From: Carcharhinus longimanus
Taxonomy: Eukaryota
Direction of reading: 5' to 3'
Length of the DNA: 64,000 nucleotides
Assembly (NCBI GenBank): GCA_030264375.1
Contig: JASCQW010000163.1
Span: 26,344,967 to 26,408,966, forward strand
The position numbers were made by a program, and so were the translations under genes. Positions 9,871-25,830 of this stretch are shown piece after piece (position 1 is the stretch's first letter; every line of letters begins with the position of its first letter). The notes under the pieces are model-generated. The model saw only the letters and a list, made by a program, of their open reading frames with translations, ran no database searches and was not told the origin of the DNA.

Positions 9871-11450
9871 CACTGTCCCAGAAGCGTTAATTAATAGCAA
9901 AACTGAAGTTTTTTTTGAAAAAAATGAAGCGGTTAGGACATCTATCCATCTTTTAACACATAAAATAAGCATAGAATAATCATATTTCAAAATAAGCCAT
10001 AAAATGTCAGTTATCTAAAAGCTGAATTGGAACCAGTTGCAAACAAGGGAAACCCCAACTGATTGACTAACAAATAGGAGTGAGGGGAGAATGCAAATCT
10101 AATTTCGCACCTATATTACTGCGGTCTTGTTGAATTTGGGGTGGGGTGGTCTGGAGGGGGTGGGGGAGACTAATCATTTGCTGTAATACTTTATTGACGG
10201 CTGGACCCAGGTTTAGCACAAACTTGTAAACGTCGCGCTAAGAGATCGCCGAATTCGAGAGGTGTGTGAAGTTGTGTGGCGAGGAAAGGCTATCCGGGGA
10301 CGCGAGTAAAAGCCTTTAAACAATATATTAAGAGGAAAGCTGTAGAACCCTAGCGTTTCCCCAATAATTAAAGCGGACAGTGACAAATTGGTTTACATCG
10401 GTAATACAAATCGTGTCTGCAGCAGTCTAGAAGCAAGTACCAAAGTTTAAAAAAAACAGCTTTTCGTAGTAGTTTTTTTTGTTCTGAAGAAAAGTTGAAT
10501 TCTCTGCGCTCCAAATAAATGTGCCTGTTTCTATTGTCCAGCCAAGACCAGACTGGACATATATTCACGACACAAATGCCTCTATTAAATTCTATTTGCT
10601 CTCCGTCCCTAACCCCAAACTCAGTCCTTACAATATCCATCACTCTGTTACCCAAACTTTTACTTTCTCCGCCTCAAATCATCTTTCTGACACCCCCTGT
10701 TGACAGCTCTTGTTTCTTGTTTGTTTCTGGGGGTCGGTGAGTATCGATCCCATTGCTTCGCTACCTTTCAGCATCATTCATCCTTGCAGCGTGAGCGAGT
10801 GCAAAGTGCGTCGCAAGTTGGGGTCGGTTAAAGGAAGCATTCGAAATGGACTTGAAGTCAGAAATCTGCATGAGCTGCCAATTGCCATTTGTAACCTGGG
10901 TCGGAAAATGTGCGGATTCTTACTGTGAATCAGTGTATAAACATGCAATGTGTAAGGAAAGGCGAGAGGAATCTCTTGTGCAAACAATGATTGCAAAAAA
11001 AAACTACCCGACTAAACAAAAATCAGCAAAATTCACAACCTGCGATTTCACAAGAAATCAAACACTTGTCAACTATTTCTGAAATTCTAATAGCCCCGAT
11101 CTCTACCCAGTTTTCAGCTAGTCTTGTCATTTAATCCTCTATTGTCTGGTATCCTCTCATCAGACCATATCCCAGAGAAGTTTATCACCAGAGAACTATA
11201 CTATTTCCCCTCTCTCCAGCCAACGAAACGCCAGTGAGTTTCTAACAGGACCCTCTCCTGGTCTAAAGCTTTCCGCCTCCCCTTCAAACTCTATCAGATG
11301 TGTTTTACGTGTTCATTAGCCTGGTTAACCTTTGCTATATCTTGGGCCGGGATGGGTTAATCAGGGCAACACCGTGAGGCCTGGGGTCAGAGGCGACCAT
11401 CTTGAGCTTGGAGTGTGGGATTTTTGCTGGAAGGTGAGGGTGCATGCATC

Positions 11451-11457
11451 CTCTCTT

Positions 11458-11491
<34 letters not shown>

Positions 11492-11503
11492 TCTTTCTCT
11501 CTC
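11451..11503. repeat. (CT)n(CA)n compound microsatellite
   Basis: Directly visible. Confidence 0.9.
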
Positions 11504-14329
11504 TATCACTATCATCCTCTCCACCTGCAGCTCTCAGTTTATCTCCAGGGAGTGCAAAACAGGAGATGACACTCTACAAATCGCTAATTAGACTTTCCCA
11601 GATACCTCGGGATGCGGTTTGCCTTTTCGCTTCTATGCGGCTTTATAGCTAAATATAGATAGAAGCTTAATTTATTTAAAAATGTTAACACGCAGCTTTG
11701 CTTCGGCATCCTGCTGTTTTTTAAGTGTATCTATTTACATCAATGTTATGACACCTAGTATTTATCTGTGTATATGCATTGGAATGTATAGATATACTGT
11801 GTTCCTATATTTTTTCATCCTTTCCTTTTTTTTGTATTTACATTTCAGCCAAATGGTAGATGTTATTCACTAATACTGGAAGCTAACACTGACACCTCTT
11901 GTCCTTTCTCGTTCCTTTCCCATAATTTTCTATGGCAGCCTGCTTTTTTTAAATATATATCCTTAACACTGCACTTTCCCCACCGTCTGAAATCACCTCC
12001 TAATCAGTGTCTATCGATTTTCGCACCTCTTTTTATCCGGTTATCCCAGCATCTGAAACATGCCTTTAAAACCTCTCTCTCTTTACACACAGTGATTTAC
12101 CCCCTTGCTCTCTGCTCACCAGCGGAAAAAAACAATCGATATGCCCGTGTTATTTGTGTGTGATCAGTAAATATTTGGTCTGGTGACATCTTCAGCTTTC
12201 CTCCCAATCGATACAGGACCCAATAGGAGGCGTGCTGCAATCTGTAGACAACTACTGTCTCCATGGTGTACCTTTCTAGCCCTTCTCGTTTTCTCTCTCT
12301 CTCTCTTTCTCTTCCTGCTCTTCTGTTAAGATCAATTTCTTCTTGACTCAACCCCTGAGTCACGCCCAGTATCCCTTTAATGCGACACGATTGTTAATAA
12401 GCTAGTTGTCTTGTTATCATCAACTTTCCATTCATAAAACGGAGTGACTTATTAAGTCTAGAGCGTACATAATCACTTAATAGCACAAGTATTGGCGCTA
12501 ACCTGATTTCTCTAATGCCATGCATTCACAGGACACCCCGGCAATGCAATGTTGTGCTTATCTTCAACAATACCATACATTTTATATCGGTGTTAGTTCT
12601 ATTTTTCAGTTGCAGCAGAGTTCGCACGTCGACCATCATTTGAGTGCCGATGCTTTCTAGAAGTGAAATCAATGAGACATTTTATGTTGAGATTCAACGC
12701 TGCAGTGTTAACTTTTTTTTAACTTATTGACAAGACCTGGGTTACAACCATTGCATCTGACCTTTTAAGTTTCAGCTATCCCTTCCCAATTAGACCACAA
12801 TGTTATTTGCTTACATGTTAAGCGTACGCCGCTGGACTTCACCGCCACCCCTACCCCCCTCCCCGCCACACACACACACACACCTAGTTAACTTTAAAAT
12901 GTATTTCTCTATACGATGCTTAATTGAAACCAAAAGGAAACGTTTTATTTGTTCGAATTGGACAAATTTCAGTTGTGCGCTGCAATTACTTGTTAAGCGG
13001 CGTCCTCACAATGCAACCACAAGTCCTTTGAGAAAGTGCATGAGTTATATATGTCTGCAGACATCAAACACCTAGGACATGTCCAGTTAGGTTTTTATTT
13101 AGCATCATTAACAATTAAAATAGGGTTTCATATACAGGAATGACTTATGTTCAAATGCACTTTAAATTGTTCTCCCTCGTTTAGGCATTTCACTTGCAGG
13201 TTTGCCTCTTATATACCACACAAAAAAAATCAATACATTTCTGATGAGCAAAAGGCGTTTTAAAAACATATACAGATGTATCCATAGAAATGTCTATATC
13301 ATGTTTAGGTTCTCTCACCTATTACTCCATTAAAAATGGTTGTATGGAAAAGTAGTGGAGCGGCTAATACTGGCAAGATCTGGAAGTGCACATATACTTA
13401 ATGATTTAATTGCGGCAGATTCCNNNNNNNNNNNNNNNNNNNNNNNNNNNNNNNNNNNNNNNNNNNNNNNNNNNNNNNNNNNNNNNNNNNNNNNNNNNNN
13501 NNNNNNNNNNNNNNNNNNNNNNNTTCCTACCCTAGAATCCGGAGAGTGAGCAGTATTTAGCTGCAATCAGGCCAGAAATGTTGCACAAGATTTTTCTCTT
13601 GAAAGAGTGCCTATGTGTCCATTGAAGGGCGCTGATCCGAAAAGACAGAGCGGACAAATAAAAATCGATCTGAAGCGACCCTGGCCGTCCTTTTCACACG
13701 ATTCACACACAATCCCCTCTCAACTCTGCCGAGACAAAGGCCCGAGGGCTGGGGGGGGGGGTGGGGGGGGGGTGTTGTGGAGGAGAGATTCTCCACAAGC
13801 TACAGATACCCTTTCCAAAACGCGCAGATAATTTTACACTGGCCACAAACCACATTCTACATCAACAATTCTTCTCAAAACCTCAAAGCAATATTAGCTC
13901 TTAAGTCAGTGCGTTGATGGGGTAAAGAGGGGGGCGGGAGTGAGGTGGGGGGGGGGGAGCGGTTAAGCGTTGGAGAAAATCATCACCTTGGTAATTCTGA
14001 GGCTATGGCAAGTTTGCAGAAGGAATAAACTACAGACAAATAAACTTTGACAACAAGAAAGTTGCCCAAACTCCAGCGAGCACATGAGTCTGATATTATT
14101 TGGGGATGTGTGTTTAAAACAAAAGGTTTTAATTCAATTATTCCTCTCTCTCTTTCTCCATCTCTCTCTCCCCTTCCTCTTACTTAACTAACTCAGGGGC
14201 AAAGCATTTCTGGTTTGAGGCTGAGAGTTCCAAACTAGCTGCTGTACTCTTGCCTTCCACGTTTGCCTCTTTAAAAAAGGAATTAAAGGAAAGGGAATTT
14301 TAGTAAAGAGATGTGGAACTGATCTCAGC

Positions 14330-14570
14330 AAAAGAGTCAAAAATTGCTAAGAGTAATCGCTCTTGTATTGCTCGGGGGGTGCTTTGACCGCTCGCATTCC
14401 GGTGCACTTTGAATAGCTCGGGCAGCAACGCCAGTCCCATAAAGTTTACCACGAGATGGGGCGAAAGTTAAATTGCAAAATCGAAAGTGCTTCACTTGTT
14501 TCTGAGTATGCCAAATGCAAAGCTTCTCGCCAAAGGTTAGCCTTTTCTTTATATAAAAATATATATATCA
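14330..14570 (+). promoter_or_regulatory. Candidate upstream alternative promoter / 5' leader
   Basis: CpG-containing complex block followed by TATATAAAA (about 14550-14558), just upstream of the putative alternative exon. Confidence 0.35.
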
Positions 14571-14783
14571 CAGTTTACACTATCGGTCGGGGCAAACAGA
14601 TGACGGTCGATGGAATGAATGATTGTCTTCAATAGACAAATAGATCAGGTGAGGAGGAGACAAACCCTCCTTCTGTTCACCTGCCAGAAAAAAAAGAGAT
14701 TCATCTCACTCAGTAATTTCCAACTCAGTTCCGCCAAGATTCACAACTTCCTGTGTCCAGAGAGGAGACTCGAACCCACCACG

Positions 14784-14835
14784 ACGCAAATAATTTCGGA
14801 CACTGAACAAAGACAATTGCAAGCAATGATGTTTG
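14784..14835 (+). CDS. NR2F2: Putative alternative first coding exon for a DBD-less NR2F2 isoform
   Basis: ACG CAA ATA ATT TCG GAC ACT GAA CAA ... ATG ATG TTT G|gtatgt translates as (T/M)QIISDTEQRQLQAMMF, resembling the human isoform-2 N-terminus MQAVWDLEQGKYGF (recalled). The phase-1 donor is in frame with exon 2 and lies about 5 kb upstream of the main ATG. The 5' boundary is unknown. Confidence 0.62.
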
Positions 14836-17800
14836 GTATGTTTTTAATAAATATATATGTATATATATATTACTTAGCTTGGGCGGGGTTGGTTTTTTTT
14901 TCTTGATCAGGACATAATCGTTCTTAAACACCTGTATTTATTAATTAATCTATATTATTTTGACATCAAGCAGTTTAGAATTTCAACACTCGGAGGATAT
15001 TCAATGTCCGTTCAAATAATTACATTTGGGGCTTTAATTCATTTGAGTTTTTTTTGCTTTCTCTGTCTATCTTCGAAATGACATTAAATCAGGCTGGTGT
15101 TTTATATTTTTGCTCTGGCTATTTTTGACAATTGAGCGAACAGCCCTTGCGGTTCCGCGTAGTTGTGTGTATGTCTCCCAGCGCAATAGCCATCACCCGT
15201 CGGACATTCAATCGCACCCGCGTATGGGTCGCGGTATCTCCCCACTGTGTAATATTAGCATTAGACAACAGAAGGTCCCGCAACAATACGAATTCGCCAA
15301 CTTAGAAATAAACGGGGGCTTCGAATCTTTCTGAAACGGCTTGCCCCGTCCTGGAGGTAGAAACCCAAAGCCTCTTTGCCCCTGCGTTTCAATGAATTAG
15401 ATTTGTTTCCTCCCCCCCTCCCCATTCATTGTCAAATTGTAATAGTGTAATAGTGCTCTGATTTACAATGCTAGGCTGAGCTCATTTCTAAAACTTTTTA
15501 AAATAGATATGTAAAGCACAGAATCGCCGCAAATAAGAAATTAGCCATTACTACAATCAACAGATATAATATTTGAACTGGGTATTAGAAATTGGTACTC
15601 ACCACTTTTCTATCTAGATCCACATACCCATCTGATGATTTGGGGGCAAAGGCGAATTTATTTATAGGGGGGTAGGAAGCAGCCGTCTTCGATTTAGCTT
15701 TACGGCGTTAGAAGAATCGCTTTAGAGAGAGAGAGGGAAGAAAAACAAATCTGTTACCAATCGGTTGTTTTGGAAAAGAAGTCTTAACGCCAACCATCTA
15801 AGTCAAGCAAGCGTCCGGGCAGATCTGGGTAAAATAAAAACACAAAGCGACGGAGATCAGCAGTCCCGCTCAGTAACGTCCGAGTCAATTAGAGCAAAAT
15901 CCTAAAGAATTAATCACATTAAAGGTGCAGAAGTTTTTTTTTCGGGGTATAAAGGGCGCGTTGTGAGCGAAGAGGCGCCGCGATCCTTTTGAAAGGCTTT
16001 TCTCCTCTGGAGTTCTACAGCGACACTCCATACGCTAGGTGGCAGCCAGATACTGTACAAGATTTTGACAAATTCTCCAGCATATGCTGCGATTTAGCAC
16101 TGTAAATTTTTCAGGAGCCCGCTGCACTGACAGCTCCCGGTGTCTATCAAAGTGCCACAAGTCACCGCTTCAAAACTGCAATGACTTTGAGATCACCGGG
16201 ACACAATGGGAACCACTTTCCCTATTCATCGTGTTGCAATGTAGTGTGAGTGAGAGAGAGGGGAGAAAAACCAGGGCAAAATCACAGGGAACTCAAATTC
16301 AATAGATCTAGCTGGTTATCAGAGAACAACTGAGAAGTAAGTGGCAACCAGATCGTCTTATAAATAGGTTACTCTGGCCATGCTATGGTTGGCACCCAAT
16401 GCAATATTCAATTAACCAAATACTATACGTTCCCTCATCTTTTTTTTTAAAAAAGAAATACATTTAAATGGCGGTTGCTGGTTTGCTCCAGAACAAATCC
16501 GAAGTTACTTCTGAAATTATTGCAACCTGTCCATTTGTAATAAAGAAAACAATGAGTACATTCTGTTCCAGAAAACCTACAAAATCCAATCTTGTGAGCC
16601 CGGGGAGGAGGAGGTGGGGAGGGGGAACCCACCTATACTGGCTTTATGCACATTTCACCAAATAACGTTGATATCCTGGCACGTTAGTTTAATTAGCAAC
16701 ATAAGATATTCGCTTCATATTTCTCAAAATTGACCGCATGTTGCATTTTGGATTGTTGAGTGTCAATGCTTCATATTATCTTTTCCTCTGACACTTTTTT
16801 TTAAAAAAAAATCAACTGTTACGTTTGAAAAGATGCATGCATTTTGCAAATTGCAATTGCTGAAGATGCTTTATGCTGAAGGGTTTTGCCCATTCTTTGC
16901 TAATGTGAGTGAGCGTGGTTTCTGTACGATTGCATCAAATGAGCATCAAGTCGAACTTGAGTTTATTTACCCTCCAAGTAACCAGATTAATAGTGCGTTA
17001 TAGCTTTTTTTAAAAAAACACTTTATTAAATTGTAAACACATCACCAAGAGATTGCTCCCACAGACTATCGACATTCAGGCAAATTTCTGAAAGAAATTC
17101 AAAGCAGCAGAGAGGGGGAATAATTGTACCGAGTAACGGTATTTGAAGTATTACCCTATTTGCACCTCAAATCGAACACCTGTTTAATGTCATCTTTCCC
17201 TGGACCCGTGTTCTTCCCTCGAATGTTCATAATTTCACATTTTATATGTTAACTGGCAGTCGTCGTTTAAGCGTGTAAATATTGGACCATTAAAAGTAAC
17301 ACGTAGTTTTAGTTTTCCACGAGTGAATTGCGAAATGCACAGGGCTCCTCTAAAAATGTGCAGTAAAGTGCATCTTTTTAGAATGTTGGATACTGTGAAA
17401 CGTGCGTCTGTAACTCGGCGCCAGCGAATTCTTAACACTTTGCAATTTCCTACAATAACACAATACGTATTCTTTTTTTCTCTCCAAACATCAGTTCATT
17501 TACATCTACTTACTTAGCTGTCTAGATAAATTTCGCAAATCACCCATTGCTGCAATTAATTATAACCCTAAATGCGACCAGAACCTCCAAAAACCAATGA
17601 ATATACCTGAACCAGTATATTTCTCACGAACATAATAACATTTGTCAATTTTGCTCTGTTGAAACCATCACTTCTTAGTTAATTCTAGCAGCGCTACCAA
17701 TAGACTAACCTCAACCAACCCGAGTGACTACTGGATGTAATGTGGTGTAAATGCAAAATAAGGACATTGGAAATTCGAATCTATGATCATTGAGGGGCAT

Positions 17801-18671
17801 GAAGGGGGGAAAGCGTTATCGGGGCAGCCCGGTTCCAAAGATTCGCCGCTCTTCCACATTGTTTTGGGGGAATTTGAAGCGAAATTATTCATCAATCTGC
17901 ATGCATCTCTGTGTATCTCTGTCTATGTGTTTCTATGCATCTAGCTAAGTGCACGCACACTTCAAAGCTGTTTCCACTTTTAAGTATTTCAAAGTAAACG
18001 TGATATTTATCCGTATTAATAATGGTTCATCAGATGAATGAGACCCTCTCTAACATTCATGGCTTCTCTCAGCCTACACACCTTCTGCAACCCGTACAGG
18101 AACAATTCTCCTTCATAAACCAGCCGTGGCTGATTTCTGACATGGTTGGTCCTTAATTTTATTTGGATACTTTCATTTAAAAAAAAATCTTGAAATAATC
18201 CTTGCCACACTTTCCCCAACAACTCCCGTCAGGACATCTCAATCAGTGGAAAAAAAAAGCCTCGCCGCCAATGTTCCATCTTTCAGCAGCAACTTTTGTC
18301 CTTGACCAGAAACTGATTTGTGAATAGTGTGTGTTTTATTCTCTGGTATTGATGGGGTGGGGGTGGTGATGGGGGTAGCATTTGTGTTCGAGAACCTGCT
18401 TGCTAAAGAACCTTGGGGGGGAAAGATAGATATTTACCTATTTGCTCATACAAGCTATAGGGTGGATTCTTTATTAATATCAAGTTGGCATTGCAAGATT
18501 CCACCTCCAATAAAAAAAGACGAGCTTATACATAATTGGGAGTATTCAGTGTGGTTGAGAATTTCTGCTTTATTGGATTATTTAATATATATGTTGTTAA
18601 TTTGTGATAGCAATATTTTTTAAAAAAGAAAATAGAGTTATTGCCCATTTTATTAAAAAAATGAAGAAACA

Positions 18672-18725
18672 GGGTGTGGGGGGTAGGGTGGGAGTGGGCT
18701 GATGGGGAGGGAGGGAGGGAGGGGG
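18672..18725 (+). other. Promoter-proximal G-quadruplex-forming motif
   Basis: More than eight GGG+ runs with short loops (gggtgtgggggg tagggtgggagtggg...ggggagggagggagggaggggg). Confidence 0.45.
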
Positions 18726-18950
18726 AGAGAAATAGAAAACTTATTTTTTTCCCCCCAAGTAGACCTCTGCGCATGGATGTAATGTAAATTTGTTGGCGGC
18801 CAGGACGTGCTGGATAATAAGTAAGGCGACTGTCCAATGCGGTACAGGGGGCGGGCCAGATGTCCCAGCCCCCCGAACCTAAAGCTCTGACCAGTCGCCT
18901 TTGATTGTCAGTCGCCAGCAGCCGCCGCTTGGCTCCGTCACTCGGCAGCC

Positions 18951-18960
18951 CCATATAAGG
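18951..18960. promoter_or_regulatory. CArG box (SRF consensus)
   Basis: CCATATAAGG is a perfect CC(A/T)6GG, about 50 bp upstream of the TATA-like box. Confidence 0.55.
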
Positions 18961-18997
18961 AAAGCATCTCCATAGAAACGTGTCAGTTTCAATAGTC

Positions 18998-19010
18998 GTG
19001 TCAAAGTTCA
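18998..19010 (+). promoter_or_regulatory. DR1 nuclear-receptor element GTGTCA-A-AGTTCA next to the TATA-like box
   Basis: Exact sequence is present. It matches the retinoid-responsive/autoregulatory DR1 that I recall from mammalian COUP-TF promoters. Confidence 0.75.
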
Positions 19011-19545
19011 CTATATACAGCCATCCGCGCAGATTTCCCCTTTCAGAAAAATTACTCCGCAAGCCCGCTCGTTCAAATCGGATTCACTTCCAACCCCCCT
19101 TTTTGCATATTTGATCAGTTCGATTCTCTCTCCCTTCCCTTATTTTTCGCCTCCTCTCGCATGAGAGAGGTTCTATAGCTCCCCTTTTTTTTCCACGACG
19201 TCGACTCCTATTTTTTTTTGTGTGTGTGTAGTCTCTCTCTTTTTTTTTGCTGGCGAGTTGTTGAGTCTCTTCCTCTCTGTGTGTATGTGTGTGTATGTGT
19301 GCAGTTCCCCTACCAGTACGGCGAAGAATTTATGATCAGTTGATGGTCGGGCACTTCTACTCCGGATCGTGCATTTGCCTTCAAGAGTCGATCCCCCCTC
19401 TCTTTTTTCCTTCTTTTTAATCTTTTAACCTTTCGTTCCCCCCCTTCGTCCTTTTTTTATGGGTTTCCTGAATGGCTGACTGCGTGCTGCCCTGGTACTG
19501 GCCCCCCGACACTCGCTTCTTCTCTGCCGATCGGATTTGAGCTCC

Positions 19546-19642
19546 TACTCTTTCTCTCTCTCCCTCCCCCTCTCTTTCTCTTTCTCTCTTTCTCTTTCTC
19601 TCTCTCTCTCCCCCCTCTCTCTCCTTCTCTCCCTCCCTCTCT
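19546..19642 (+). repeat. (CT)n / polypyrimidine tract in the 5'UTR
   Basis: About 95 nt of almost pure C/T ending about 120 nt upstream of the ATG. Confidence 0.9.
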
Positions 19643-19765
19643 GTATTTTTTTTTGGGGGGGTTGTTGTCAGCTAATCGACTCTTCCTCCTTCGTTTTGTT
19701 CCTGATCTGACGATTCCAAGACAAGACAGGTTTTGTTTTGTCTGATAACACTCTTGCCCCGAGAT

Positions 19766-20186
19766 ATGGCAATGGTAGTTAGTACGTGGCGAGACCCGCA
19801 GGACGACGTGGCCGGAGCGCAGGGCACACAGCCACCCCCGCCTCAGCAAGGACCGCAACCGCCTTCTGGAGCACCCCTTACCCCGCAGACCCCAGGGCAG
19901 CCGGGAGCCCCGGGCACCCCGGCCCAGTCCAACCAGCAGAACCAGCAACAAGGCGAGAAACAGCAGCAGCATATCGAGTGTGTGGTGTGTGGCGACAAAT
20001 CGAGCGGCAAACACTACGGCCAGTTCACCTGCGAAGGTTGCAAGAGTTTCTTTAAGAGAAGTGTGCGCAGAAACTTGACGTACACATGTCGTGCCAACAG
20101 GAACTGCCCCATAGACCAACACCACCGCAATCAGTGTCAGTACTGCCGCCTGAAAAAATGCCTGAAAGTCGGCATGAGACGGGAAG
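19766..20186 (+). CDS. NR2F2: NR2F2/COUP-TFII coding exon 1 (A/B region and C4 zinc-finger DNA-binding domain)
   Basis: ATG at 19766 gives [17 protein letters not shown]...[72 protein letters not shown], a canonical COUP-TF DBD. Donor GAAG|gtattg at 20186/20187, phase 1, 421 nt. Confidence 0.97.
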
Positions 20187-20435
20187 GTATTGAGAATTCA
20201 TTTATTTCCAAATGTTTGCGCTTACTCTAAACCAGCAACCCACCCTTTCCAACCCCAACCCACCCACCCACTCCCACCCTGGCAGAAAGGGAGCTGAACT
20301 GCTCAGACTTAATTCTGTAAAGTTGTAGTGTGTGTGCTACCTGGCATGCCAGTTAAAATCAATTGAGTCTGTACTTTAGAGGGTGCCTCTGGTTGAGAAA
20401 GTCCTCTAAGTATTCTTTGCAAATGATTTTGATCT

Positions 20436-20458
20436 GTGTGTGTGTGTGTGTGTGTGTG
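20436..20458. repeat. (TG)n microsatellite in intron 1
   Basis: Directly visible. Confidence 0.9.
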
Positions 20459-20983
20459 TTGTCTGGGGGGAGAGAGAAAGAGAAAACTGTACGTGTGTGT
20501 GTGTGAAAGAGAAGGGGGTCTTTTGAAAATAGTAAGATGCTGAAAGAAGTGTGCTTTGATTGTAATCCATATTGAAAAAATGTGTTATGTTACCCACGAA
20601 ACTTCACACGAAAAGAGAGGAGGGTGTGAATAATGTCCTGTGCAAGTTGGAACAGTTTGCAGAGTGAAGTCCAGATAGGGAAATAAATCAGCCATTGTTG
20701 TAAAAAAAAAGATTCAATCAGTTTTTTAACACACGCTGTAGGGAAATGACATAGCAAAATGGCATGGCAGTGTTCGGTTTAAAATATGCCGGCTAGCTTT
20801 AATACACACAGCTTCACGTTGTACAGCCGGTGGGAGATTTTTTTTGTCTTTAAAAAATGATAGTGTATGCAGCAGTTATTGTTGTTGTAAAATGGCTCAG
20901 GGGTGTGTATTGTATGCAAACTGTCTGACAATATGGTAAGATGCAGGTTTTAATATCTGTAGTTTGTTCTTTTCGCACTGCAG

Positions 20984-21511
20984 CAGTCCAAAGGGGAAGA
21001 ATGCCACCTACACAACCGACTCCTGGCCAGTTCGCCTTGACAAACGGAGACCCACTCAACTGCCATTCCTATTTATCGGGATATATCTCCCTGTTACTGC
21101 GGGCGGAGCCATACCCGACCTCCCGCTACGGCAGTCAATGCATGCAACCGAACAATATCAGGGGCATTGAAAACATTTGTGAACTGGCCGCTCGGCTGCT
21201 CTTCAGCGCGGTGGAATGGGCGAGGAATATCCCTTTCTTCCCGGATCTTCAGATCACAGACCAGGTAGCTCTACTGAGGCTGACCTGGAGTGAGTTGTTT
21301 GTTCTGAACGCTGCCCAGTGCTCCATGCCTCTCCATGTGGCTCCTCTCTTGGCCGCCGCCGGGCTGCACGCGTCCCCTATGTCTGCAGATAGGGTCGTAG
21401 CCTTCATGGATCACATAAGGATCTTCCAGGAGCAGGTCGAGAAACTCAAGGCTTTGCATGTCGACTCGGCAGAGTACAGCTGCTTAAAGGCCATCGTCCT
21501 CTTCACTTCAG
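20984..21511 (+). CDS. NR2F2: NR2F2 coding exon 2 (hinge and most of the ligand-binding domain)
   Basis: Acceptor ctttt cgcactgcag|CA gives (A)[32 protein letters not shown]...KAIVLFTS. Donor TCAG|gtaggc. Length 528 nt, phase 1-1. GQFAL, LNCHSY and DQVALL are NR2F2-type residues. Confidence 0.97.
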
Positions 21512-22836: not shown

Positions 22837-23163
<327 letters not shown>

Positions 23164-25830
23164 ATAGGGAAGGGGAGGGCAAAAGAAAAGGCAAGTGACA
23201 TTATTTTGCAAATTCCTTCTCGTAAGGGAGGAAATAAAAGGCTGTTACAAGTTTACCTATGTGACACACAAAAAAATGAAGAGAGGGAAGAGAAAAAAAG
23301 GACTGTGGATTTCAATGACTGTACAAGAACTTTAAAAAAAAACGCATTCAGAAACTCTCCTGTGTCGTTCAGAACAACTTGCTACTTATCATTTTTGTAA
23401 CAAAAGGAAATTAGTCTTTTATTTTGGTTTATTTTGTAAACTTTTGAGAAATATCGATATAAAGATAAGTGCATTTAAACAAGAATTTCAAAATTAGGAG
23501 GAAAGAAAGAAACATTTTCCAAATTATTATAAATTGTCCTGTGTCTATGTATCTATAGCTGTTTTGTATTTTTCCTGGTTTCAAACCAGTCTCCTCTGTG
23601 ATTCTCTACTAATAATTTTGATATAACCATTGCTTCTTATCAGATACGGTGTATCACGTAAATATGTTCTGCAAGAATTAAAACTGAATCCACTAAAAAA
23701 GTTAGACGAAAGGTTTTATCGACAGGATTGAAACTTAATGCTGGAAACGCACTTATAGTGTTAACTCATAAGANNNNNNNNNNNNNNNNNNNNNNNNNNN
23801 NNNNNNNNNNNNNNNNNNNNNNNNNNNNNNNNNNNNNNNNNNNNNNNNNNNNNNNNNNNNNNNNNNNNNNNNNTGTAATCTCAATTATAGTGTTAACTAA
23901 TAAGACGTTTAATTTGGGGGAAATGGACTGCAGACCTTTATTAAATGATACACAATTGTAATTTTAAAAAATCCATTGTTGAAAACTGGTTAATATTGAC
24001 ATGTTCGGGGGGGGGGAGGAGTACTTTGTGGGTATATTTCTGAAAGCAAAAATCTTTTATGTGTCCAAGACACAGTACAATTTTGTTTCATTAAATTTAA
24101 GAAATTTTTAGTGATCTGAATGTGGCTCCATTTAGTTCCTGTTGCAGTATAGAGTCCGACCAGGCTCCAAAAATTAAAAAAGCGCCTGTTTGTATATTTC
24201 CAGCCCATTTGTAACAATTATCAACCCATTGCCCTTTTAAAGGAAAAGTAATGCCACAATTTCTTTTCTTGGATTCAGCATGGAACTCTATGTCGGCACT
24301 TACTATTTGACATGTGGTTAATTAAGTATCTAGAGTTTACAAGTCGTGTATACAAGCTGAAGGTTTTTTTTAAGTGCAACATTTCTGTACTGTAAAGAGT
24401 TATGATCGGATTGTTTGGTCAGTCTTGTGTGTTATATTCAAGAAAAAAAATGAAAGTATTCGGAGATTATAATATTATTTGATATATGGAACTTTTTCGC
24501 TGTTACAACTGTATGTTCACCCAAGGGAAAAAAAATCTCATTACAATGGTCAAACATCGCAGTTTACTGGAGTCATTACAATTCGTGGATTATTTGTCTT
24601 ATTTACTCAATATACCTGTATGGTTTACTACCACTGTCTGTAGTAGTGGACAAACCACATGCTCTTTCGATGAAAGGATAAACCGTGGACTCATGCTGCT
24701 CATTGTCTTTTGGGTTTAGCAGTGACACCTCAAAGATACAGTCAAAAAATCCCCAATACGAAACGCCGTTCCCCCTCCTCTTTTAAATTCAAAATGCCAT
24801 AGGGATTTTGACCACCGACCCTTATTTAGTTCTAACTTAAGTGCCTGTGCAACCAATGTACATTAGACAGGTGTTAGGAAGCATGGATCATTATGTGTTT
24901 TAATGGTCAAGATTTTGTTTTGAAGCTTATTGTGTCTAAAGTTCACGCACAGAACACACTTAAACAAGCAATTGCTACTAGGAACAGTGTTGATTGTAAA
25001 TAAAATATATTAAATGAGATTTATTCATAAAAAAGTATGTCTGGAAAAATGTGGTTGCCAATTTTTGTTATTGGAAGTTCTTCAAACTGAGGATGATGTG
25101 ACTGACGTTTGATGTGTAGCACTATAAGTGAGCCTGATTTAATGTATATACATATAAATTCATTTGAATTTTTATATATGGGAATAGACTGTGAGAGCAT
25201 GGCCACAGGTCGCTAACACATTTTACATTTGTTACATACATGTAAATGTTGGATTGTATAGAGGATATACATTTTGGCGAATGTTTGCCTTCAGTGCTCC
25301 CATATACCCTTGTATTAAAAACAAAACAAAAAAAAAACAACAGAGCGAGCTGGTTTGAGTTGGCCAAGCCATTTGTTCTAAGCTTTTCTGGTAGTGCTGC
25401 TACCTACCTACACTGCAGTGTGAAAACTTGCATTTTGTCCCTTTTTTTAAAAAAAAGACAAAAAAAAACTTTTTTGTGTGTGTGGCTGTCCGGCCACATA
25501 CTACATCATGTTGTGGTTACACACAAAAAGAATCATTTTGTATAGTTGATGGAACAGTGATCTTTACCTGTTATAGAGACAGATCTGGACCAGAAATGAT
25601 GTATGGTTGTGATTATTAACACGTTTGCAGCTGACCCACGTTTTTTTACTTCAGGGTATTGCTCCGCTGTTCTAACTTATAGATCGAGCCTTCTCAGATG
25701 TTTTTTTTATTGCAAGTAATATGTGTATGGAGTTACTCCGCCAGACTCCTGTTTGTGTTAGCTATTGTATACAGCGTTTTTGTTGTAAATTGTTATTGGT
25801 ATTAAATTATAATTTATGGCTTTGAATCAA
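23164..25830 (+). other. NR2F2: NR2F2 3'UTR (distal end inferred)
   Basis: AU-rich and repeat-free, with several miRNA seed matches. Candidate signals are ATTAAA at about 23677, AATAAA at about 24999 and ATTAAA at 25801. Contains one N gap. Confidence 0.6.
25801..25806 (+). terminator. Candidate distal polyadenylation signal ATTAAA
   Basis: Preceded by TGTA motifs and followed by a U/GU-rich stretch (tgttttattc). Confidence 0.4.

Follow-up and report, generated by a model that had tools for sequence, protein, structure and literature searches.

The closest described counterpart of the locus reported here is isoform 2 of human and mouse NR2F2 (COUP-TFII_V2, NR2F2-Iso2, NM_001145155). In this form, an upstream exon is spliced in phase 1 to exon 2, and the product has a full ligand-binding domain and no DNA-binding domain. 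Human isoform 2 is reported to arise from an upstream start controlled by methylation and to bind full-length NR2F2 through two leucines, altering its output (PMC10073109). It is described as lacking the stronger nuclear signal, and forced nuclear entry alters its effects (PMC10073109, PMC8997336). According to the portion of a review considered here, which names only human and mouse, isoform 2 inhibits in liver cells and enhances in stem cells (PMC7016888).

The literature found treats the short isoform as a human and mouse feature that is tied to melanoma and pancreatic cancer and has no known normal role. A full-text search, with most subscription journals and supplements outside its scope, turned up no paper that covers this isoform for cartilaginous fishes, and none on the ACG change described below. 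The words "isoform", "splice" and "first exon" were absent from the main text of a paper on Nr2f evolution (PMC8608329). Other annotated NR2F1/2 short forms have N-termini of 0-5 residues. Among the NR2F1 models, several forms lacking the DNA-binding domain were seen, with short alternative N-termini spliced at the same exon-2 position.

A probable upstream first exon at the shark NR2F2 locus

The window, which is the whole stretch of 64,000 nucleotides that was analysed, contains the NR2F2 (COUP-TFII) locus of a cartilaginous fish on the plus strand, with a canonical ORF of 407 aa. Its identity was established by Pfam domains PF00105 (zf-C4) and PF00104 (ligand-binding domain) in an NR2F2-type sequence, and the protein of exons 2 and 3 differs from horn shark NR2F2 by a single residue. 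The features discussed are listed in Table 1.

Table 1. Features of the alternative first exon and of the canonical NR2F2 exons (positions in the window)
Feature	Position	Strand	Evidence or remark
TATA-like box (TATAAAA), candidate core of alternative promoter	14552..14558	+	sequence; function inferred
Initiator-like site, candidate transcription start	14575..14581	+	consensus match, 23 nt past start of TATA-like box
Short upstream ORF (11 codons if begun at ATG 14600, 6 if at ATG 14615)	14600..14635	+	overlaps ATG 14619 out of frame
Two-codon upstream ORF	14610..14618	+	stop directly before ATG 14619
55-codon in-frame extension from weak-context ATG 14619	14619..14783	+	start of relatives' models
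Hairpin, 14 base pairs, E-box-like arms CAGGTG ... CACCTG	14646..14683	+	predicted fold
Bipartite-NLS-like basic motif in extension	14652..14702	+	5/5 species vs 5/343 background stretches
Frameshifted block, 23 codons out of relatives' frame and back	14688..14764	+	8-A run 14688, AG repeat 14759
ACG ACG; 14784 is the Met position of skate, sawshark and bony vertebrates	14781..14786	+	
13 codons matching isoform-2 N-terminal peptide	14787..14825	+	1/13 columns variable, 5 elasmobranchs
ATG ATG, proposed main start	14826..14831	+	first Met in 5/5 elasmobranchs, second in 4/5
Phase-1 splice donor, last exon base 14835	14833..14841	+	sequence; peptide junction matched in 4 relatives' proteins
Canonical exon 1, coding part (A/B region and DNA-binding domain)	19766..20186	+	left out by short isoform
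Exon-2 acceptors: main 20984, second 20963 (21 nt upstream), tandem CAG 20987	20957..20986	+	all in frame
Exon 2 (hinge, beginning of ligand-binding domain)	20984..21511	+	
Exon 3, coding part (dimer helix, AF-2)	22889..23164	+	protein identical to horn shark

The canonical ATG follows the donor of the alternative exon (TTT G/GTATGT, the slash marking the exon end) at a distance of 4,931 nt. Joined to the main exon-2 acceptor (CTGCAG/CAG), this donor yields F-A-V in frame across a predicted intron of 6,148 nt, and the exon that is passed over holds the whole zf-C4 domain found with Pfam. The sequence has the arrangement of an isoform-2 type first exon, namely an upstream exon, a phase-1 donor into exon 2 and a skipped DNA-binding exon. 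A processed copy was rejected since this intron lies between the exons. Using a rough matrix, the donor ranked 92 of 3,340 plus-strand GT sites, and the canonical exon-1 donor ranked 173. An intron-1 donor near 20936 was also considered and rejected, as the remaining intron would be shorter than 50 nt. Pfam found no domain in the 72-residue stretch of the alternative exon, and Rfam gave no match in window positions 10000-18000.

The positions in the preliminary description of this DNA were exact for both ACGs (14781, 14784), both proposed ATGs (14619, 14826), the donor, the in-frame acceptor and the hairpin. ORF translation also returned its product lengths of 339 aa (from 14619), 284 aa (14784) and 270 aa (14826), as well as 285 aa from 14781 and 269 aa from 14829.

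The exon had been called hidden, yet five database proteins from four named elasmobranch species already carry it. Longer proteins were searched with the 72-codon ORF 14619-14834, giving 2 matches of 22 candidates. The clusters of both matches contained two models from thorny skate, Amblyraja radiata (XP_032906397.1, XP_032906396.1), and one each from whale shark, Rhincodon typus (XP_048471873.1), horn shark, Heterodontus francisci (XP_067873881.1), and sawshark, Pristiophorus japonicus (UniRef100_UPI00398F4119). Each skate protein has a second accession; the label on the whale shark record gives two Galeoidea members. The models, which are automatic predictions and not experiments, have the same exon, donor and upstream ATG as the window, are 338-345 aa long and share 61-68% identity with the 72 in-frame residues of the window. 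Both of the models that were scanned, out of the five, contain a ligand-binding domain and no other domain.

Four of the five proteins, one from each species, join the peptide exactly at the window's junction. The fifth, from skate, uses the acceptor 21 nt upstream, which adds 7 residues. The use of two acceptors with one donor suggests that the models rest on spliced reads. All five begin at the ATG equivalent to 14619; this start is probably the longest-ORF default of automatic annotation.

Relation to the short forms of bony vertebrates

The N-terminal peptide given for human isoform 2 in the preliminary description was confirmed by a simian database record. Among the matches listed, 15 of 76 proteins carried the 14-residue bony N-terminus, and they came from bichir, amphibians, reptiles, a bird and mammals. 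The main short-form cluster has 136 members, 15 of which were covered. Teleosts have a related N-terminus of 13 residues. The annotated 281-aa short forms (bichir, amphibians, reptiles, birds) and the teleost forms share the exon-2 junction of the window and, like it, have an aromatic or aliphatic residue before AVQ. Shark and bony N-terminal peptides have in common a Q, a D/E, an EQ and the terminal F, in addition to acceptor and phase. The peptide of the predicted shark form is likewise related to that of human and mouse isoform 2, and both forms have a full ligand-binding domain and no DNA-binding domain.

There are also differences. The coding end of the shark exon is 3 codons longer than that of the bony exon, including the human and mouse one. 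The bony forms start with an ATG-encoded Met at the ancestral position, where the window has ACG, and none was seen with an annotated extension. Compared with human and mouse isoform 2, the window has a back-up ATG ATG near the donor and an in-frame upstream ATG with a 55-codon extension.

A profile of bony N-termini was built from 9 of the 15 sequences, 8 of them distinct, with teleosts excluded. Against this profile, the 9 codons from 14784 ranked 4 of 76,399 six-frame 9-mers, and the whole exon end ranked 9 of 3,019 open phase-1 GT sites when a 3-codon gap was allowed. The peptide likeness by itself is suggestive, not unique. With single bony N-termini as tblastn queries, the exon was absent among the two best matches per query, and it was found only by the profile. 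The site had been set in advance by the shark models, and its acceptor and phase are those of the bony exon. This makes common descent of the two exons from the jawed-vertebrate ancestor very probable, the comparison being one of proteins with no chimaera record in it. The exon ending at 14835 is likely a first exon transcribed from an upstream promoter, and it is likely orthologous to the human isoform-2 exon. The elasmobranch models and bony N-termini thus bear out the proposal that this is the alternative first exon of an NR2F2 without the DNA-binding domain, matching the human exon, and they make the proposed jawed-vertebrate origin probable.

A metagenome scan with a short exon motif gave 0 matches, and a profile of four elasmobranch N-terminal stretches matched 0 of 60 candidates of 39-126 aa. 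Two profile matches among 1.84 billion representatives were judged unrelated, since each covers a short part of a long protein. These representatives yielded no form from chimaera or lamprey, which is weak evidence since clusters hide members.

The presence of the exon in sharks, skates and bichir implies that it has been retained since the jawed-vertebrate ancestor, about 440 million years ago, which argues for a developmental function. The two dimerisation leucines sit in exon 3 and are unchanged in the window. By analogy with the human form, the shark product most likely works as a dimer partner unable to bind DNA, with the sign of its effect set by context. The role of dominant modulator that had been proposed for it would be an extension of human cell data in which, in the parts of the sources used here, the effect goes either way depending on cell type (PMC7016888, PMC10073109).

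The ancestral start codon and its alternatives

The CpG observed/expected ratio is 0.77-1.14 around and after the exon (14500-16000) and 0.62 in the whole window. Such a rise is as expected if the exon has a methylation-sensitive promoter like the human isoform-2 start. We take the site at 14575-14581 to be initiator-like from a consensus pattern. A start at about 14575 would leave four ATGs close to the transcript's 5' end (14600, 14610, 14615 and 14619), of which the three ahead of 14619 had been overlooked in the preliminary description. No ATG occurs from 14622 to 14825; gaps of this length account for 28 of 1,096 in the window. Human NR2F2 itself is described as rich in upstream ORFs (PMC9943669).

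As had been claimed, the codon at the ancestral Met position is ACG and not ATG. This position is Met in skate (Batoidea) and sawshark (Squalomorphii) and Thr in whale shark and horn shark (both Galeomorphii) as well as in the window; the relatives were read as protein, in which Thr is seen and the codon, ACG or other, is not visible. An assembly slip was rejected as the source of the ACG, as Thr is also present in two other species. A single ATG-to-ACG change on the galeomorph stem likely accounts for the pattern. Over 43 residues, the window has 3 and 4 differences from the two galeomorphs, 5 from sawshark and 8 from skate, which weakly places it nearest the galeomorphs at further residues as well. 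The tandem Met pair at 14826 has Thr as its second residue in sawshark, likely reflecting a second ATG-to-ACG change in the same exon. The exon is already known from the automatic annotation of relatives, and the isoform is listed in many species; what is new is that one clade has lost the ancestral ATG and that the extension has kept its frame. The galeomorph change amounts to a natural experiment that asks if the 14-residue N-terminus is important.

Four readings of the start were weighed, and a mixture of starts is likely. We give an even chance to the reading in which ATG 14826 is the main start, so that start-codon turnover has led to a 270-residue product, a dimer partner composed of the hinge and ligand-binding domain. 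The contexts are G at -3 for ATG 14826 and A at -3 for ATG 14829; for ATG 14619 the bases are T (-3) and A (+4). Under the scanning and reinitiation model, which is described as established (PMC13631847), ATG 14619 would be bypassed by most ribosomes, which would run past the ACG and initiate at 14826.

The following sequence of events is proposed. Transcription would begin from the TATA-like core near 14552-14581, and the transcript would be spliced from 14835 to 20984, as in the relatives' models, skipping the DNA-binding exon. The short upstream ORFs at 14600, 14610 and 14615 would catch most scanning ribosomes and shadow the weak ATG 14619. Ribosomes would then rescan across the ATG-free stretch, where the ACG, having no G at +4, may account for little of the initiation and ATG 14826/14829 for the remainder. 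Elasmobranchs already had the back-up Met, which may be why the old ATG could be lost. The product would be unable to bind DNA and, by analogy with human, could raise or lower the output of full-length NR2F2 by way of their common dimer surface.

It is improbable that ACG 14784, or 14781, is still a working start that supplies, at a lower dose, a 284-residue isoform keeping the ancestral N-terminus. In its favour, ACG is known as a near-cognate start codon, it stands exactly at the ancestral Met position, Thr in two other galeomorphs speaks against an assembly slip, and the next 13 codons are nearly invariant, with 0 and 1 differences in the Thr lineages. Near-cognate starts are reported to be markedly weaker and to depend on a purine at -3, a G at +4 and a hairpin 14-18 nt downstream (PMC5666671). 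Both ACGs have A at -3, but +4 is A or C, and only weak pairing is predicted after 14784. The CCACC before 14781, to which the preliminary description had drawn attention, is present but particular to the window, as relatives have Ile or Phe at the Thr codon ACC. The near invariance of the 13 codons is not significant against the upstream columns (1/13 variable vs 13/52, Fisher p 0.27, whale shark omitted from one 9-codon block). Among the examples given in the source, yeast ALA1 and FMR1 have an ACG with a -3 purine as in the window, and PTEN-beta uses AUU; the ACG of the window differs from known near-cognate starts in replacing an ancestral ATG instead of adding an extension (PMC5666671). 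With an in-frame ATG conserved in 5/5 species 42 nt downstream, the ACG is on balance unlikely to be the main start. Overall, the alternative first exon, its homology and the ACG at the Met position have stood, while the hidden status of the exon has not.

Frame and hairpin of the upstream extension

A third reading, in which the main product is the 339-aa protein from ATG 14619, is rather unlikely. The 55-residue extension, gained in elasmobranchs, would here supply a bipartite nuclear localisation signal in place of the strong signal lost with the DNA-binding exon, which would make the old ATG dispensable. The extension is conserved as DNA but not in its amino acids. For 23 codons, the window is read in a frame other than that of the models and matches the relatives only in the +1 frame, with entry at the A-run and exit at the AG repeat. 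About 9 whale shark codons match the window only in the +2 frame, and the sawshark extension has a 3-base gain. The frameshifts of the window and of whale shark are independent and compensating, yet 5/5 species have a net open frame between ATG 14619 and the donor. However, the four relatives were found through their open frame, and the window alone is unselected, with a chance of about 1/3 of being open.

The basic motif, which we call bipartite-NLS-like from its fit to a pattern, is similarly two-sided. It is far commoner among the five species than in background stretches, and both frameshifted blocks leave its two basic clusters untouched; the human isoform, without the stronger nuclear signal, also has effects that depend on location. 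The motif was nevertheless identified post hoc, has one evolutionary origin and derives from AGG repeats and an A-run, which code for R and K in several frames. As to the start itself, ATG 14619 is used in all relatives' models, and the hairpin begins 24 nt past it. This distance is beyond the 14-18 nt that aids initiation, and the ATG has a weak context, three earlier ATGs and a stop codon immediately ahead.

The hairpin has a predicted energy of -19.2 kcal/mol and a z of -3.0. In the window, 15/860 tiles had z <= -3 and 6/860 reached both values, a background that understates hairpins as the tiles were not centred on them. Five of 6 distinct changes fall on unpaired bases, which make up 26% of the span (binomial p 0.006); the changes were inferred from the proteins of three relatives, with silent changes invisible and whale shark left out because of its frame. 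A conserved RNA hairpin would fit this pattern, and so, just as well, would a pair of E-box-like DNA sites in inverted orientation. The outer arms, 14646-14651 and 14678-14683, are inverted E-box-like hexamers 26 nt apart. Presumably they could form a paired site for ZEB/Snail-type factors instead of an RNA structure.

Such sites would also suit the fourth reading, in which the exon is conserved DNA (a regulatory element or leaky transcript) giving little or no protein in this lineage, and the ATG decayed as the isoform stopped mattering. DNA-level conservation even across frame differences and the several upstream ORFs are in line with it, and the E-box-like arms could account for the hairpin pattern. 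We consider it quite improbable, as the donor, the phase and Met 14826 are all kept and both Thr-bearing relatives have junction-bearing models.

A combination of the main reading, ATG 14826, with the ATG 14619 reading is doubtful. One elasmobranch leader would make two products, a long form that starts at ATG 14619, has its own bipartite nuclear signal and keeps its frame through compensating frameshifts, and a short form that starts at ATG 14826 and lacks the signal. The galeomorph ATG would have been demoted to ACG, and the upstream ORFs and hairpin would set the nuclear-to-cytoplasmic ratio of the modulator.

Two further observations concern the canonical gene. In exon 2, positions 21160-21162 read AGG (Arg), where 12/12 other aligned proteins have Met; this is either an assembly error or a rare substitution at a near-invariant position of the ligand-binding domain. 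The canonical 5' leader has an ATG-started ORF of 22 codons at 19472-19540 (+), 294 nt ahead of ATG 19766, which aligns over 18 residues (78%, E 1e-9) with the start of an NR2F2 model from coelacanth. Its peptide, with much Trp, Cys and Pro, is a candidate for a conserved product of an upstream ORF.
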